A stretch of 63,951 nt of DNA, the filler included, from Licmophora abbreviata (taxonomy: Eukaryota): NCBI GenBank assembly GCA_900291995.1. It is 10 parts of 10 records of this genome, joined end to end, with 100 filler letters (N's around TTAATTAATTAA, not from the genome) between each part and the next. Parts side by side here need not be neighbours in the genome. Positions count along the whole stretch, not along the records: positions 17,189 to 20,784 come from OLMU01003363.1; positions 20,885 to 22,916 come from OLMU01003364.1; 8 more parts are not named here. One strand, 5' to 3'. The notes beneath the pieces are model-generated. The model was not told the DNA's origin. It did no database searches and worked only from the letters and a program-made list of their open reading frames with translations. Of the stretch, positions 17,189 through 24,174 are shown in pieces; the stretch's first letter is position 1, and the number at the start of each line of letters is the position of its first letter. The position numbers and the translations under genes are program-made.

Positions 17189-18025
17189 GAGAACTTCTTG
17201 CGACATGCAAGCCTTCTGCAAGTCATCATGAAGACAAAAATCGTAGCGTACTGCAAACCGAATGGCTCGCAACACACGAAGAGGATCGTCGTGAAAGGTT
17301 GTGTGCGGATTGAGCGGCGTTTCGATAACGCCTTTTCTCAAGTCCTCCAAACCTCGTCCAGTCCAGTCTTCCACTTGATCGGTCCGTAAGTTGAAAAATA
17401 GAGCATTGATGGTAAAGTCGCGTCGCTCCGCATCTTCTTTGGGGCTACCAAACTGTGTTGTGGGAATACGAGAGCCTGGCAGGTAGACCTCTTGCGATCG
17501 AAGATTGCAAAAGTCCACATCGATTCCAAAAACATCCATAGTGGCCGTCTCCAAATGTTTCGACTGGGACGGGTTCGCCGCAATGACTCCCATCTTGTGT
17601 ACTTCATCAGGAGCATGCTGCTGTAGATACTTTTGCACTACTGTTGCGAATTCGACTCCCGACATGCTGTCAATGGCAATGTCGACATCGTGCGTCTGCA
17701 GTCCCAGAATCTTGTCTCGGACCCATCCTCCCGCCACGCGAATTTCAATTGCATGAGGCGATCTGTGATTATTCCTGTTCTTTGCGTCCTCCAATGTGAC
17801 ACTGCCTGCCGCGAAGGCATCCGCTGCCTTCACTAGCGTCTCAAAGAGTTTCTCTTCTTGATCCGTCAACCAGATGATGACAATGCGATCGTCTGCCACG
17901 CTTGGATGAGGGTGGTCAGGATCGCCCTCGGTAAACACGATGGTTGCGACGGACGCTGTCGGGATCTGGATGGCCGAGAAAGAACTCGAGCGGCGACGAA
18001 CCGGTGGGGAGCGAGGAACGTCCAT
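17189..18025 (-). CDS. CCA1: CCA-adding tRNA nucleotidyltransferase (class II), 3'-truncated by a gap
   Basis: RVAGGWVRDKILG, DVDIAID, SKHLETA, EDAERRDFTINALF, DDPLRVLRAIRF. Confidence 0.93.
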
Positions 18026-18746
18026 TAGGAAGGGAAGATTCGATATTGGTGGGCTGACGTGCCGATTCGTGTCACAGCGCCGCCGTCGTGAAGAAGTCTT
18101 GCACTACAGTGTGTCTGTTCAGGCTTCTTGCCTCTATCGCGGTCAGATCTTTTTTGTGCAAGACCGAAATTTATATCTGAACATTTGTTGCAGAGATGAA
18201 CTATTCTCTTCTGAGCATATGTAGCAGGAAATGGAGGTAGAGTGTCATGCTGTCGCGTTTGGCTATCATTGTGATCTCGTCGCCGTCGCCGGTCGTCGGG
18301 AGATCTGAATTTCGAAATTCGAGCTCAAAACTGAGGAAAAAACTCATATTCCCACCCTTTGGGCTATCACACCCTCATTCAGATGCGGCAATCACGGCAT
18401 CATCGGCGTTCTCCGCAACTCTTCGGGCTTCGACTGTGGATTTGGCACTACCCTCTAGCCTTCCGCTCTTCCGGGCAATGGATGACACAATCCGGGTAAA
18501 CGAGAAGCGATAGATGATATGTGTAGATCTTGTCGGAAAGACACCTTGAGAGAGCTTCTTTAAAAGATGGCAAGGGCCTCCATGGCTTCTTTAAATGATG
18601 CATCGCAAGAGACGAATATCAGAACCACCAGATAGAAAAGACACTGTCGCTGTGAATAAGACTTATTATGAAATGACATACCATCATCGTGACACACATC
18701 TCCCCGATGACCAAAATATTTGAACCCAGCGTCAGACACACAAGTG

Positions 18747-19709
18747 CTAGTCGCCTTGTGAGTGCTCTTCCTCTCGCGACCACCACAATGGATCCTCCTC
18801 ACTTCGAGAGGCCCATTCCTCTTGGACAGATTCAAAGTCGACGGAACCGTCGTCCCGTGCCGGCGTATCTCTCTTCGGTGTGAGTCCAAGCCCACCCCTC
18901 AGCTTGGACCAAATCGAGTCCTGGGTGGTGTCGTGGATACCTTCCTGCATAATGAACGAATTATCATGTTCCGATGTCCAATGTGGCTGTCCGTTGGCGA
19001 GCAATGGATCATCCAGTGCGTTGTTGCGGTCTGGATTTCTTACGCTGTGTCGCCACCACCAGGGTCGATCGGATCCTCGTCGTCGCGGCGAAGCAGCAAA
19101 AGAGACTTCGTTTTCCCGCTCTTCTTGCAAGACCATCCATCGTCTCGTAGCAATCCACCGAAAAGTCTCAATACAAAATAGCGTCAACAACGATACCCAC
19201 AGCGCATGGTGACGACTATCGAGAAAGAGCCACAAGCGCTTGGACAAATGCAACGTGCTGGCATGATTTGCAAGGTATCGAAACACCTTGGCATGGATGC
19301 TGCCGCAGAGAATGCACAGAACCAGCAGGATAAGAATAATGCAGGGAGAGAGATAGTTGACATTCATCCTAGTTCCACAGGAACGGAATTGCGGGATTCT
19401 CATTCCCACAAGACCCAAGACGCCTCGAAGGAACAAGAGCGAGCCGATAGACAGCGACAGCGCAACGATGGTGCGGACATGAACGGAAGACGATTCCTGC
19501 AACAAAATAATGCCATAGAGCAATAACAAGAATCCCGTAAGACTGTCTATTGCCAGCCAGGCTCGAAGGAAAGACGTGCCGATGCTCGCTGTTCCCTGCT
19601 GTTCTGCGACGTCGTCGCGTCGCGCGCTTGTGTAGCTCTTGGGGTCATTTCTGTGGCTCAAATTTTCCTTTTTGGTTGCCGCTGTTGCCCATGGATTATC
19701 GTCGTCCAT
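18747..19709 (-). CDS. Four-TM (tetraspanin-like topology) hypothetical protein
   Basis: 320-aa ORF with four hydrophobic helices and a C-terminal VDFESVQEEWASRSEEDPLWW motif. Confidence 0.7.
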   Translation of the reverse strand: MDDDNPWATAATKKENLSHRNDPKSYTSARRDDVAEQQGTASIGTSFLRAWLAIDSLTGFLLLLYGIILLQESSSVHVRTIVALSLSIGSLLFLRGVLGLVGMRIPQFRSCGTRMNVNYLSPCIILILLVLCILCGSIHAKVFRYLANHASTLHLSKRLWLFLDSRHHALWVSLLTLFCIETFRWIATRRWMVLQEERENEVSFAASPRRRGSDRPWWWRHSVRNPDRNNALDDPLLANGQPHWTSEHDNSFIMQEGIHDTTQDSIWSKLRGGLGLTPKRDTPARDDGSVDFESVQEEWASRSEEDPLWWSREEEHSQGD

Positions 19710-20116
19710 TTTAAGAAGGTATGAAACACGTAATTAAGTGAAAAGAGAGGATAGGAGAGACATGCAAGGGGCACGAAGAGCGTTAGAAGGTGCGGTACAG
19801 TCACACTAATGTCGTTGTTGTGTGTGAAGAACGCGAGTTCGTCATTCACGAGAGAGGCGCGCGGCAATTTCAGTGACGAAATCTTGAAAATTCGAGCTCG
19901 AATATACTTCAACTGATTTTGAAGTGCGTAGCTCTCCGTACAACTTGTACGCAACACGTCATCATACTCTTGCGAGGAGGAAAAGCTGCTCTCTTTCTGG
20001 TGTTCATTTCAACACAAAATCGAAATCGGTGGCGCAAGATTGGAATGCTGAACAGAGTCGTCTTGTCGGGGCGTCCCTCTTGTTTGCATAGATCGCTTGG
20101 CTTGCGGGCGGATAGT

Positions 20117-22306
20117 ATGCACTTTCGTCGGTTGTGCTGGACGACCTTGTCTCTCTGGACGACAGCACTTTCATCGCGAGCAGCGCCGGCTCAAGCCTTT
20201 TCGGCGGCTTCCTCTAGCGGCAACAACATGTCATCCCTGTCCACAGTCGAATCATCCTTTTCGTTGGATCCACCGGGTACGTTGGAACCGGTCCAAGAGA
20301 TACTGGAGAACTCCTGGGTGCGGCAGCTGTCCCCCGAGACACCCGAGAATCTGAAAAAGTCGCGTGGTGTCGAGCGACTCATTGAGCTCGATGACAATCG
20401 CACGAAACGGCCCGTGTACAATGGACACTACGTATTGGTGAAACCGACGGGATTGATGAAGCCTCGTCTAGTCTTGTATTCTCCCAAAGTGGCGGAAATG
20501 CTCCATCTGACTCCCGATCAGGTGGAATCGGCGGACTTTCTGAACTATGTCAGTGGCAACCTAGCAATTGGCGAAACGTGGGCAACGCCCTATGCGCTGA
20601 GTATCATGGGAACGAGATACACAAATAATTGTCCTTACGGATCAGGAGATGGCTATGGTGACGGTCGAGCCATAAGCATTGGGGAATTCGGTGGCTATGA
20701 ACTGCAGTTGAAGGGAGCCGGCAAGACCCCCTTTCACAGAGGCGCCGATGGACGAGCCGTGTTGCGGAGCAGCATTCGTGAATTNNNNNNNNNNNNNNNN
20801 NNNNNNNNNNNNNNNNNNNNNNNNNNNNTTAATTAATTAANNNNNNNNNNNNNNNNNNNNNNNNNNNNNNNNNNNNNNNNNNNNTCAGTGGCACAGCTTG
20901 GAGTGCGAACGACGCGTGGCTTGTCGCTCGTAGTGAGTGGCGTGAACACATCACAGCGACCGTGGTACTCGGAGAATTCCAAATTACAGTTGCCGACCAT
21001 GGACGATCCTCGACTGTCCCAATACACGGAGGAACAGAAGCGTCAGATCCTATCACAGCTGCGTAACGAAAAGGCCGATCCCAACTTGATGATTACCGAG
21101 CCGAATGCCATCACGTGTCGTGTAGCTCCTAGCTTTACACGAGTTGGGCATTTCGACTTGTTTGCGCGTCGTGCCGAAAAGGCAAGCATTGCGAATGCGG
21201 ACAAGACGAACAGTAAGTATGATACTAGTACAAATGAATGGAAGGAGCTCGAGCAACTGGTGTGGCATGGATGCTATCGAGAGTTCCTGGAAGAAGCCTA
21301 CGATCCATTCATTGAGGAGCAGGATATTGCTGGTGCGGCCACGGTCATGCTGGAACAAGCAGCCGAACGTCTTTCGAGCATGGTGGCTTCCTGGGTTCGT
21401 GTGGGTTTTGCACAAGGAAATTTCAATGCCGATAACTGCCTCATTGGTGGGCATACGATGGACTACGGGCCTTTTGGGTTCATGGACGAGTACAGTCCTT
21501 TGTTTGCGAAATGGTAAGTCACGAAAATGCAGGTCTGCTGTTGGTCGACGTAATGGCGTGCTCAAGTGCTACCATTTAACTCTCTCTACATCAGGACGGG
21601 TAGTGGCAATCACTTTGGCTTCATGAACCAGCCTAGTGCTGGATTTGTCAACTACCAGGTGCTGGTGGAAAGTGTTGTCCCGGTAATTTGCGCTGCGCAA
21701 AAGGATGAAGATGCGGAGGCGGTCATCAAGAACTTCATGGAGCGTGCACAGGAGCTATTCATGGGAAAGGTCGATGAAATGTTCAGTATCAAGATGGGAC
21801 TGGCTCCCGGCAATGAGGCAAGCGAAGATTTGTGGCAGAACTTAGAGCCACTGATGCGAACCACTCGGGTGGATTGGACCATTTTCTGGCGACGGTTGTA
21901 CGAAGTGTCCAGGGACTTCGATTCCGACTCTACGGACTATGAAGGCATGCTGGAGAAGTTGGTCGGAATCGGGGACAGCGGCTCATTCTATGAGACACTT
22001 ACTCTCGGGCAGCGTAGGCAGTATTTGGCGTGGATTGAGCAATGGAGAGATGTCGTCAAGGACGAAGATGGCGCGACGGAACGGATGCGTCTTGCGAATC
22101 CCAAGTACGTCCTTCGGGAGTGGATGTTAGTAGATGCATATTCTGCTGCGTCGACTGGTGACGAAGACGTGCTAAAGGACTTGTTCGAATTGATACAAGA
22201 GCCCTACAAAGAAGGTAGCACTCGACAGTCCGAGTCCTTCTTTGTTCGCGCGCGCGAAGAGGCGTTGATGGCGGGCGGGACTGCGTTTATGTCATGATCC
22301 TCGTAG
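20117..22306 (+). CDS. SELENOO: Selenoprotein O (protein adenylyltransferase) with Sec encoded by TGA 22295-22297; spans gap 20785-20884; intron 21514-21594
   Basis: YGDGRA, QLKGAGKTPFHRGADGRAVLRSSIRE, GFAQGNFNADN, DYGPFGF, NPKYVLREW; 3' end ATG TCA TGA TCC TCG TAG = M-S-U-S-S-stop; alternative ATG at 20045. Confidence 0.93.
20785..20884. other. Artificial scaffold gap spacer inside SelO
   Basis: N44-TTAATTAATTAA-N44; only a few codons (LASEAM-like) appear to be missing. Confidence 0.97.
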
Positions 22307-22392
22307 TCGTGCAGTGTACGCCGTTCTGATAAGAGGACGGCACGCTGCACGCGCAGACTGCAATCTCCTTGGGGCTGTTGAAATTTGGTGTC

Positions 22393-22476
22393 TATTCATG
22401 GATGACGGGTGCACGGGACAAGTGGATAATAAAGACATACGTCGAATCACTCGTCTAGGCAACCTGAAAATGAGTA
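22393..22476 (+). promoter_or_regulatory. Candidate eukaryotic SECIS element (type II, long apical arm)
   Basis: Helix I TATTCAT/ATGAGTA; core ATGAC (22402) and TGAA (22465); helix II GGGTGC..GGAC/GTCT..GCAACC; unpaired AA at 22420; apical stem GTGGAT/ATCAC; folded by eye. Confidence 0.65.
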
Positions 22477-22597
22477 TGCACGTTGGCAGTTAAGGGCATT
22501 GATTTCTACATGAAGCGACGGGGAAGGGCTTAGTTAAGTTACACATAGCCGTGAATTTCTTGCTTTGATCCTCCGCACTGTTGGATGAACGTGTATT

Positions 22598-24174
22598 CTA
22601 CGATGTCCCTTGATAAAGAATCCCGCAATCAAAGTACTTCACACAGTCAGCGTCACAAGAGCTTGCCTGGTCATCAAAACAGCAGGCGGCACTTTTACAG
22701 ATCTCCTCGCAGTAGCTCTTGTCGCTACCCAGGCATGCTTGTCTTACGTCTGTCTTGCTTACACCGCCTCCGTTCGTGGTGCCTGGGCTGGAGCCCGAGC
22801 CGGAGCCGCTACCACCCGCCCCATTTTCAAGCACTATACTACAGTCAAAGTAGGTAATGCAATCCAAAGAAGCGTCGGAACACTCTTCATTGTCATCAAA
22901 GCAGCATCTGGCTGGTNNNNNNNNNNNNNNNNNNNNNNNNNNNNNNNNNNNNNNNNNNNNTTAATTAATTAANNNNNNNNNNNNNNNNNNNNNNNNNNNN
23001 NNNNNNNNNNNNNNNNTGCGAGGCAAGCTTCTTGGACGTCTTGCTTTGTGACATCACCTCCCGTTTCTTTTCCACCGCCTGTGTCCACACTGCCTCCCGA
23101 TGTGCTGAAGATATCTTCGCACGGCCCGTAGTCGACGCAGTTGACGTCCGACGAGCAATCTTCGTCGGAAAAGCAGCAGGCACCTCTGGCGCACACCAGC
23201 TGGCAGTATGACGTGTGCCTGATCTCTCCATGATCCCCGAAGGTACATGCCTCTCGGATTTCGAAAATGCTAGTTTCGATCTCCTGGCCGCCGGTGTGAA
23301 GCTCATTGCATTCCTCGTATTGGGAACAAAAGGACGTGTCGTGGTGTTGGCAATCTTCGGCGCTACCAGGGTCAGCAAAGCAGCAGAGTGCGTTGGAGCA
23401 AACTTGGTGACACTTCAGTCGATCTTCAGGTGTGATGAGCACCTCAGGGGCGCAAACGGCATCTACCAACTGAGGGATACTTTCATGCTCGTGGTCGGTA
23501 GCGCCGAGGTTCAAACACGGCGCGTAGGACTGGCATTCTGCTTGAGTGGTACACGATGTGACATTATCCTCGAAACAGCACTCAGCATGATGGCACGCAT
23601 CGTGACACTCAGTGAAGCCATCGACAGTCGCCAAACTCTCAGTTGTACACATTTCCGGAAGGTTGGCGGGGGCCTGGGGAATATCCGTAGGTGTTTCGGA
23701 CGCCTGGGTACCTGTCAAGACGCCACAGAACGCGTGATACTCGAGGCACCTACGTTCGTTTCCAGGGAGGCATGAAAGCGGCATGTTGGTTGGAAAGTGG
23801 CAGCATTCGGCTGGCTCACAGAGCTCCTGGCACGCTTGTTTGCCACCATCTGTGGCAACGAGCTCTTCTGAGCACTTGGTTGTCATGTCCGAGGGTGGGA
23901 GCGGAAGGCCAGCATGCGTTGAGACCGATGGGTCACTACCTCCAGAAGGTAGAGTTACAACAAGAATGATGATAGAAACAAGAATCCCAGCAATAGTAAG
24001 GACAATCTTGGTCTTCCGGGGGTCCAGCGATCGACGGGTGGGGGGGAGTGCTGAGTTGCGGATGTCCGACTCGGGGTATATGTTCTCGCCGTAAGAGTCC
24101 TGGACATCGGTCCAAGGCCGATGTGTAGGCACCCGTGTCATGCTGTTGGGATCGTAAATGGTGTCATCCGTCAT
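22598..24174 (-). CDS. Type II membrane protein with tandem Cys-rich repeats; spans gap 22917-23016
   Basis: N-terminal TM IVLTIAGILVSIIILVV, then at least 6 repeats of C-x3-C-x2-A-x-CC-x(n)-C-x(n)-C-x2-Y-x2-C continuing after the gap to the stop at 22598. Confidence 0.8.
22917..23016. other. Artificial scaffold gap spacer
   Basis: N44-TTAATTAATTAA-N44 within a repeat-containing gene. Confidence 0.97.

Follow-up and report, generated by a model that had tools for sequence, protein, structure and literature searches.

A divergent selenoprotein O gene of the diatom Licmophora abbreviata with an in-frame UGA codon and a predicted plastid-targeting leader

We analysed a stretch of 63,951 nucleotides (nt) from the diatom Licmophora abbreviata (assembly GCA_900291995.1), referred to here as the window, in which ten parts of ten records are joined end to end with 100 filler letters between each part and the next. 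A plus-strand gene at 20117 (or 20045)-22306 is probably a diatom nuclear selenoprotein O (SelO) gene of about three exons, encoding a precursor of about 673 residues. It extends over two of the records, OLMU01003363.1 (window positions 17,189-20,784) and OLMU01003364.1 (20,885-22,916), with 100 N's at 20785-20884 between them. The reading that we favour, at a probability of roughly 0.6, is that the gene encodes a selenocysteine (Sec) form of a divergent SelO subtype that would be targeted to the plastid by the leader starting at ATG 20117, that its UGA codon would be decoded with the help of a Sec insertion sequence (SECIS) and of a hairpin just behind the stop codon, and that it was inherited within the algae. 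The features of the locus, in window coordinates, are as follows.

20045-20116, plus strand: upstream in-frame ATG and 24-codon basic, acid-poor extension (MLNRVVLSGRPSCLHRSLGLRADS), a candidate alternative start with a mitochondrial-presequence-like N-terminus
20117-20197, plus strand: predicted signal peptide of a bipartite plastid presequence (MHFRR / LCWTTLSLWTTAL / SSRAAPAQA), with predicted cleavage before the Phe codon at 20198-20200
20198-20305, plus strand: Ser/Thr-rich, acid-poor, transit-peptide-like stretch that runs from the Phe at +1 up to where the conserved domain (..ILENSW) begins, compared with orthologue N-termini
20117-20784, plus strand: readable part of exon 1, encoding the N-terminal lobe of SelO (Pfam SelO 57.1 bits, profile positions 18-132), with the exon end hidden in the N stretch
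20579-20671, plus strand: 31-residue glycine-loop region with a subtype-specific insertion and a conserved Cys (NCP)
20785-20884, no strand: N stretch inside the gene, probably hiding the unreadable last codons of exon 1 (..FLASEA) and the greater part of an intron of about 87 nt
20889-21513, plus strand: exon 2, with the catalytic loop QGNFNADN (21413-21436) and the Mg-binding MDYGPFGF (Pfam SelO 81 bits)
21514-21594, plus strand: intron 2, 81 nt, GT-AG (GTAAGT...CAG), interrupting PLFAKW/TGSG, which is uninterrupted in orthologues
21595-22306, plus strand: last exon, ending ...GGTAFMS-U-S-S-stop (Pfam SelO 36.2 bits)
22295-22297, plus strand: in-frame TGA, read as Sec at the antepenultimate position and followed by TCC, TCG and then TAG (22304-22306)
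22308-22351, plus strand: 18-bp hairpin, a candidate Sec-redefinition element (SRE)-like structure, starting 2 nt after the TAG and 13 nt after the U of the UGA
22393-22476, plus strand: favoured SECIS candidate, found by hand, with helix I UAUUCAU/AUGAGUA
22502-22593, plus strand: second, weaker SECIS-like candidate, with AUGA at 22510-22513 and GA at 22584-22585, which passes a generic AUGA/AA/GA scan

Across the N stretch the orthologues have nine residues (FLASEAMHY) where the window has 38 positions, a surplus of about 29 codons, and the N's end just before a cag at 20886-20888, behind which the frame continues as ..(A)TG GCA CAG CTT GGA. The surplus and the cag together point to a mostly hidden intron of about 87 nt, probably ending at 20886-20888. 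N runs with a central TTAATTAATTAA interrupt both the SelO gene here and, at about 22940-23020, the adjacent minus-strand open reading frame (ORF), and are not biology.

All three readable pieces of the gene match PF02696 (SelO) above its cut-off of 22.8 bits, and YdiU/SelO entries of the PDB are matched at E values of 1e-42 to 6e-38. The fold comparison was made on an orthologue, P0002, and not on the N-interrupted window protein. P0002 is the closest relative, with 74% identity to the window protein across some 530-540 aligned columns, and its AlphaFold model has a predicted local distance difference test score of 95.4. Compared by Foldseek with the crystal structures of canonical SelO/YdiU (E. 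coli YdiU and P. syringae SelO; PDB 6k20, 6iii, 6eac), this model gives template modelling (TM) scores of 0.84-0.86, target-normalised, at E values of 1e-29 to 5.5e-27. The columns of K148, D358, N359 and D368 are invariant in both SelO subtypes considered below (alignment A5, 63 sequences), and the window carries the catalytic residues as LQLKGAG (Lys), NADN (Asp-Asn) and MDYG (Asp); the catalytic roles of the LKGAG Lys, the loop Asp-Asn and the DYG Asp are those given in the SelO literature. Family membership and the intact catalytic residues show, at the level of sequence, that the protein is a SelO, a member of the pseudokinase-fold protein AMPylase family. From the fold match and the invariant residues, AMPylase or UMPylase activity is expected.

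A search with the last exon returned 164 longer proteins, every one with a SelO domain and the best of them 67% identical, and the named matches are from diatoms only (Cylindrotheca, Seminavis, Nitzschia, Epithemia, Pseudo-nitzschia, Phaeodactylum, Thalassiosira and Aulacoseira). Motifs were counted in 120 database orthologues plus the query: the catalytic loop reads QGN(F/Y)N(A/G)DN in 117 of these 121 proteins, and the glycine loop is exactly 31 residues long in 100. The window protein carries the signature of this subtype, a 31-residue loop of the form W-A-x-x-Y-A-L-S-I-x-G...(N/Q)CP...GYGDGRA together with Q-G-N-F-N-x-D-N, whereas canonical SelO/YdiU, for all its common fold and catalytic residues, differs in its HGVMNTDN and short GHQFG loop (GHQFG..GQLGDGRG in E. 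coli YdiU), and the diatom protein P0004 has extra inserts after RPWY. P0004 falls below the cut-offs of the NCBIfam bacterial YdiU models NF000658 (274.8 against 431), NF040880 (193.9 against 900) and NF045949 (189.6 against 850). An exhaustive search with P0004 as query retrieved 5535 representatives at E<=1e-3, 760 of them at E<=1e-30; of the 150 best, nearly all belong to the QGN(F/M)N type. Two eukaryotic gene models carry additional domains, a bromodomain (PF00439) in P0231 and PF07534 in P0488, a Symbiodinium selO; these fusions may be real or may be merged models.

The same signatures are found in bacteria. A profile scan of one genome per prokaryotic species was made and the best 80 loci were compared; QGNFNSDN is present in 54 of them, together, where the regions are present, with a WA(T/C)GYALSI(Y/F)G.EY.QQCPF.TGNGYGDGRA loop and a GG.SH.SCSS end. 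The subtype occurs in cyanobacteria, proteobacteria and Campylobacterota, with hosts that include Prochlorococcus, Synechococcus, Cyanobium, Chamaesiphon, Marinobacter, Shewanella, Alteromonas, Glaciecola, Arcobacter and Sulfurovum. A further 26 of the 80 loci are of canonical type (HGV(M/L)NTDN, ...GCSMLSCSS end), and are 30-34% identical to P0004; the QGNFNSDN loci are 36-41% identical to it over residues 79-663, apart from one (L032) at 34%. A search with P0204 returned 7996 proteins at E<=1e-30, and the best 120 include SelO of Gallionellaceae, Shewanella, Oleispira and Halobacteriovorax; the bacterial QGNFNSDN subtype is a large one. Its members (in Shewanella, Marinobacter, Oleispira, Gallionellaceae, Prochlorococcus and Synechococcus, for example) have in common with the diatom enzyme an insertion of the same length with an NCP/QCP Cys, the Q-G-N-F-N-x-D-N catalytic loop and a [C/U]SS end. 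They differ in having Cys (TGT/TGC) for Sec, no N-terminal leader, and a GG(V/I)SHYS tail in place of GGTAFMS, and they form a separate clade.

An earlier note on this DNA, made from the sequence alone, had likened the gene to a cyanobacterial and proteobacterial YdiU subtype ending in S-C-S-S. The sequence features that it quoted are all located in the window where it placed them, and the enzyme does belong to a divergent QGNFN/long-loop subtype that is also found in cyanobacteria and proteobacteria. That bacterial subtype exists, as the 54 loci attest, but the SCSS end is not specific to it, being present in the 26 canonical loci as well; 'proteobacterial YdiU' as a label covers both subtypes. 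E. coli YdiU does read HGVMNTDN, the motif with which the note contrasted QGNFNADN.

The end of the protein is conserved in a manner consistent with Sec coding. We collected 79 related metagenome loci, 26 with eukaryote-type ends, 41 with bacterial-type ends and 12 without a resolvable end. TGA-Ser-Ser-stop is present in all 26 of the eukaryote-type loci and TGT or TGC occupies the Sec position in all 41 of the bacterial type; the in-frame UGA thus aligns with the Cys of homologues and is kept in orthologues, which bears out its reading as a coding UGA in the earlier note. Among the 120 database orthologues (query excluded), 105 end right before the TGA position, 10 read ...CSS and the remaining 5 end otherwise. 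Sec and Cys interchange within the clade, since the closest relative, P0002, is a Cys form. Cys in place of Sec is also seen in P0018 (Cylindrotheca), P0094 (Aulacoseira) and P0122, and as judged from these alignments the exchange has happened repeatedly inside the diatoms.

Because the UGA is conserved, a SECIS as such is very likely to exist, and the site at 22393-22476 is quite probably that element. Its core AUGA (22402-22405) lies opposite a UGA (22465-22467), helix II is extended, and an unpaired A precedes an AGUGG/UCACU helix; the fold has an energy of -22.9 kcal/mol (z -2.47), with 3 of 200 shuffles equally good. The motif ATGAC-N(5-16)-CAAGTGG is common to this candidate and to the 3' untranslated regions (UTRs) of the orthologues L084 and L085, and occurs once in the window against 0.15 occurrences expected over 64 kb. 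Several observations count against this assignment and against the SECIS component of the favoured reading more generally. The window UTR yields no match to the Rfam SECIS models at E up to 10, and 14 orthologous loci yield only weak miRNA-like hairpin matches. Helix II of the candidate is unusually long, at 14 nt from AUGA to AA, and the candidate failed the generic AUGA/AA/GA scan, which is passed by 12 of the 706 AUGA sites in the window and which chose the second site, at 22502-22593. For that site, no motif in common with the orthologues was seen.

Clearer elements are present in the UTRs of sister lineages, where a combination of pattern search and folding located SECIS-shaped structures of the form [A/G]UGAC-GCC...AAAG...GGC-YGAU (L093 3632-3707, L095 3584-3657, L096 3158-3233, L106 3585-3662, L107 3610-3685, L109 3476-3553 and L089 3353-3417). 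Most have a GUGA rather than an AUGA core, and none is reported by the Rfam SECIS models at E up to 10. A covariance model (R1) was built from six of these elements; beyond its training set it matches L111, which is near-identical to the training member L107, and L089 (E 0.041). To the points against the window SECIS must be added that R1 does not match the window candidate, even with filters off. An alignment of whole 3'UTRs with MAFFT aligned only their first bases.

Directly behind the stop codon lies a hairpin. The 18-bp structure at 22308-22351 has an energy of -29.4 kcal/mol (z -6.3 against mononucleotide shuffles), and a closed hairpin begins at +11 to +13 from the U of the UGA, that is 0-2 nt past the true stop, in 18 of 19 orthologous UTRs, the loci compared (L081-L124) being related rather than independent; L087 is the sole UTR of the 19 in which none was found. 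The stop-proximal hairpin beats 95% of the other start windows of the same UTR in 9 of the 19 and is unremarkable in energy in the rest. Stem sequences differ between lineages (CGUGCAG, GCGUGUA, UCUUUCC, CGCGCGG and others) and it is therefore the structure that is kept. The closest known counterparts are the SelN SRE and the SelS SL1, stem-loops a few nt 3' of a UGA-Sec codon, of which SL1 opens the 3'UTR of a protein with a C-terminal Sec (excerpts of PMC3628699). The diatom structure resembles them in lying just 3' of a UGA-Sec codon, and is unlike them in belonging to diatom/algal SelO, in starting 0-2 nt past the true stop and in having a predicted role; by this analogy, we infer that the hairpin acts as a Sec-redefinition-like element. 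The hairpin was also considered as the SECIS itself and was rejected, having no AUGA/GA core in the right arrangement.

At the other end of the protein, ATG 20117 opens MHFRRLCWTTLSLWTTALSSRAAPAQA/FSAASSS (the slash marks the predicted cleavage site). As the earlier note had proposed, the AQA/FSAASSS junction fits the small-x-small/Phe motif and acid-poor Ser/Thr-rich stretch of diatom bipartite plastid signals, and the motif recurs in orthologues. A leader rule was defined as a Met, a hydrophobic window (Kyte-Doolittle threshold 1.3) and then small-x-small followed by F or W; 24 of 44 N-termini (43 orthologues and the window) pass it, compared with a mean of 7.0 and a maximum of 13 in 200 shuffles, and several of the failures have F after P, V, L or I. 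On this evidence, plastid targeting of the short form from ATG 20117 is the best reading. There are nevertheless reasons for caution. The window leader has an n-region MHFRR and an uncharged 13-residue core, but its best 9-residue Kyte-Doolittle mean is about 1.1, below 1.3, and it fails the rule on this hydrophobicity threshold only. It is Arg/Ser-rich and acid-free, resembling a mitochondrial presequence, and a conserved in-frame Met upstream of it speaks against targeting to the plastid only. Moreover, the yeast homologue FMP40 is cited by Dudkiewicz et al. as having an experimentally determined mitochondrial localisation, and vertebrate SELO has a predicted mitochondrial targeting peptide (both in excerpts of PMC3281104). 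Literature searches for selenoprotein O with diatoms, chloroplast or Phaeodactylum found no paper on diatom SelO localisation, and the excerpted main text of Dorrell et al. 2017 (PMC5462543) makes no mention of SelO.

Phylogenetic trees were calculated with FastTree (165 rows) and with IQ-TREE in 'quick' mode (78 rows, with Shimodaira-Hasegawa-like approximate likelihood ratio test (SH-aLRT) supports), and their topologies agree. The IQ-TREE tree was rooted on seven canonical sequences, six bacterial loci and the canonical protein P0262; canonical eukaryotic SELO was left out of the trees, and many of the rows are unlabelled. The diatoms form one clade (SH-aLRT 98), nested in a 27-row clade of eukaryote-type sequences, whose sister group (98) is a clade of 32 rows that contains all of the bacterial QGNFNSDN sequences and a few unlabelled rows. 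When the eukaryotic-clade members other than diatoms are made into a profile, its matches include EukProt and MMETSP transcripts, as well as the dinoflagellates Symbiodinium, Polarella and Durusdinium and the prasinophytes Nephroselmis and Pyramimonas, and the cluster of one eukaryotic-clade member holds MMETSP transcripts. Because the cyanobacteria lie deep inside the bacterial clade, beside gammaproteobacteria, we see no specific cyanobacterial or plastid-ancestor signal in these trees. A separate eukaryote-type group with QGNMNSDN (P0209, P0221, P0243 and others) has a short loop of canonical length (YGCH.YGHWFGQLGDGRA); this more basal group, which includes Emiliania, branches between the canonical and long-loop subtypes in the IQ-TREE tree and is an apparent intermediate of the two.

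Two simpler accounts of the gene can be set against these results. It is very unlikely that the TGA is a plain stop and that the protein ends ...GGTAFMS without Sec. The failure of the Rfam SECIS models in the window UTR and in the 14 orthologous loci would be explained by it, as would the behaviour of gene callers, which end 105 of 120 orthologues at the TGA, but we reject it on the strength of the two Ser codons and second stop that follow the TGA in 26 of 26 loci and of the Cys at the aligned position in homologues, where Cys-form relatives read ...FMSCSS and bacterial proteins ...SCSS. The clear SECIS elements in sister-lineage UTRs likewise argue for Sec, and Dudkiewicz et al. 2012 also read Sec in Thalassiosira and Phaeodactylum (excerpts of PMC3281104). 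Slightly less credible still is a recent transfer from bacteria or cyanobacteria, in which a YdiU-type gene entered the diatoms and then acquired Sec and a SECIS, as the earlier note had proposed. The signatures that the gene has in common with the bacterial QGNFNSDN clade, to which Prochlorococcus, Synechococcus and Cyanobium belong, speak for such a transfer. The diatoms are, however, nested among algal sequences with SH-aLRT values of 96-99 (the rejection rests on branch supports only), the bacteria form a clade of their own, and the UGA-bearing subtype is also present in other algal lineages. With the cyanobacteria deep in that separate bacterial clade, a recent cyanobacterial origin was rejected. 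Since Sec coding appears common across the algal clade, it would not have been gained in the diatoms, and the 'transferred gene that gained Sec' does not hold as a diatom event; the gene was probably inherited within the algae and is not a recent bacterial import.

The more serious competitor concerns destination. In this account one SelO gene serves both organelles, the long form from ATG 20045 being mitochondrial and the short form from ATG 20117 being targeted to the plastid. ATG 20045 is the first in-frame ATG past an in-frame stop at 19874, and the conservation of this upstream start makes a mitochondrial isoform possible. The layout with two Met codons is found in the window and in all four orthologous DNA loci whose N-terminus is resolved; the stretch from the upstream Met to the Met preceding the hydrophobic core is basic and hydroxylated and 22-33 residues long. 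By chance, an upstream ATG before a stop would be expected in about 1 case in 4; these loci are, on the other hand, few and related. About 16 of 43 database protein models carry the extension, although gene callers may over-extend ORFs. Taken over 16 extensions (the window and 15 orthologues, a 17th row of the table, P0023, being left out), the composition is acid-poor and basic, with 11 D+E and 81 R+K in 538 residues, and both frame and sequence are kept among the related species represented by P0018, P0019 and P0025. Dual targeting to plastid and mitochondrion is known in diatoms, with alternative starts discussed, from Gile et al. 2015 (PMC4494062) and Dorrell et al. 2017 (both in excerpts), and diatom SelO genes are placed in the algal branch only in the excerpted text of Dudkiewicz et al. 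2012. We treat the mitochondrial long form as a serious possibility at the level of sequence, but dual targeting is the less probable of the two destinations and we hold it tentatively. The composite version, in which a single Sec-SelO gene supplies two organelles via two AUGs and its UGA is decoded by means of the conserved hairpin and a non-standard SECIS missed by Rfam, is similarly doubtful.

Under the favoured reading, that of a plastid-targeted Sec-SelO, the gene would work as follows. The UGA would be decoded as Sec with the aid of a 3'UTR SECIS, most likely that at 22393-22476, and the stop-proximal hairpin would help this decoding in the manner of a Sec-redefinition element. Translation from ATG 20117 would give a leader whose signal peptide is cleaved at AQA/F to expose the Ser-rich transit peptide, so carrying the enzyme over four membranes into the plastid. 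There the enzyme might AMPylate (or UMPylate) proteins during oxidative stress, and the C-terminal Sec might serve as a redox-sensing or regulatory residue. In P. syringae, canonical SelO reportedly uses an activation-loop Cys as redox partner, and the corresponding Cys is absent from the window protein (LFAKWTGSG), which tells against redox gating; because this canonical partner is missing, such gating is pure inference. Other Cys residues are conserved in the subtype, in the loop NCP (48 of 63 sequences) and in DNC (52 of 63).

A plastid location has a possible parallel in plants, in the Cys-form SELO of Arabidopsis. This protein is said to have been reported as a chloroplast protein (Fichman et al., 2018), and would thus be, like the diatom protein, a SelO homologue with a plastid location, which for the diatom is predicted. 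The Arabidopsis protein would use a primary-plastid transit peptide rather than a signal peptide with an ASAFAP-type motif, and it differs further in belonging to branch 3 of Dudkiewicz et al. 2012 (excerpts of PMC3281104).

The algal group described here matches 'branch 1' of the same study, which comprises SELO of Micromonas, Ostreococcus, Aureococcus, Ectocarpus, Thalassiosira and Phaeodactylum; the Phaeodactylum protein P0101 and the window protein group in one diatom clade and have the same C-terminal Uxx> end. That study listed Thalassiosira and Phaeodactylum SelO with an unannotated Uxx> end, indicating Sec in stramenopile SelO, and Sec-SelO had been described in Ostreococcus and Porphyra by Lobanov et al. 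in 2007 (excerpts of PMC2375036). Sec in diatom SelO and the algal SELO branch have therefore been in print since 2012, and UGA-proximal recoding hairpins are likewise known. The excerpted text of PMC3281104 also gives 'secretory pathway' predictions for some eukaryotic SELO and duplicated, 28%-identical SELO genes in Acaryochloris and Marinomonas; its account of branch 1 does not include the long-loop and QGNFN signatures, the bacterial counterpart clade or a proposal of plastid targeting.

SelO is the most widespread pseudokinase AMPylase and has been treated in yeast and animals as a mitochondrial stress enzyme. If the favoured reading is correct, a plastid SelO, perhaps accompanied by a mitochondrial isoform, would mean that Sec-dependent AMPylation takes place in the secondary plastid of organisms that are major marine primary producers, and that the supply of selenium is tied to redox control in the plastid. 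For the annotation of algal selenoproteins, the hairpin and those SECIS forms that Rfam misses are practical leads, because 105 of 120 database orthologues stop at the UGA. Given that two deep SelO subtypes exist in bacteria and eukaryotes alike, mechanisms known from the SelO of E. coli or P. syringae, for example the activation-loop Cys partner, should be applied to this subtype only with caution.

No tRNA genes were found within the window. Downstream of the SelO gene lies a convergent gene at 22598-24174 on the minus strand, encoding a protein that is rich in Cys, contains repeated C..C.E.C....CC-like motifs as well as a transmembrane-like segment, and is without a Pfam match; the 3' end of this gene lies within about 10 nt of the second SECIS-like candidate. 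Upstream, the SelO gene shares a 335-bp divergent intergenic region (19710-20044) with a minus-strand ORF at 18747-19709, whose 320-residue product resembles a membrane protein and likewise lacks a Pfam match. Ahead of the SelO starts there are three short upstream ATGs (19721, 19762 and 19809).

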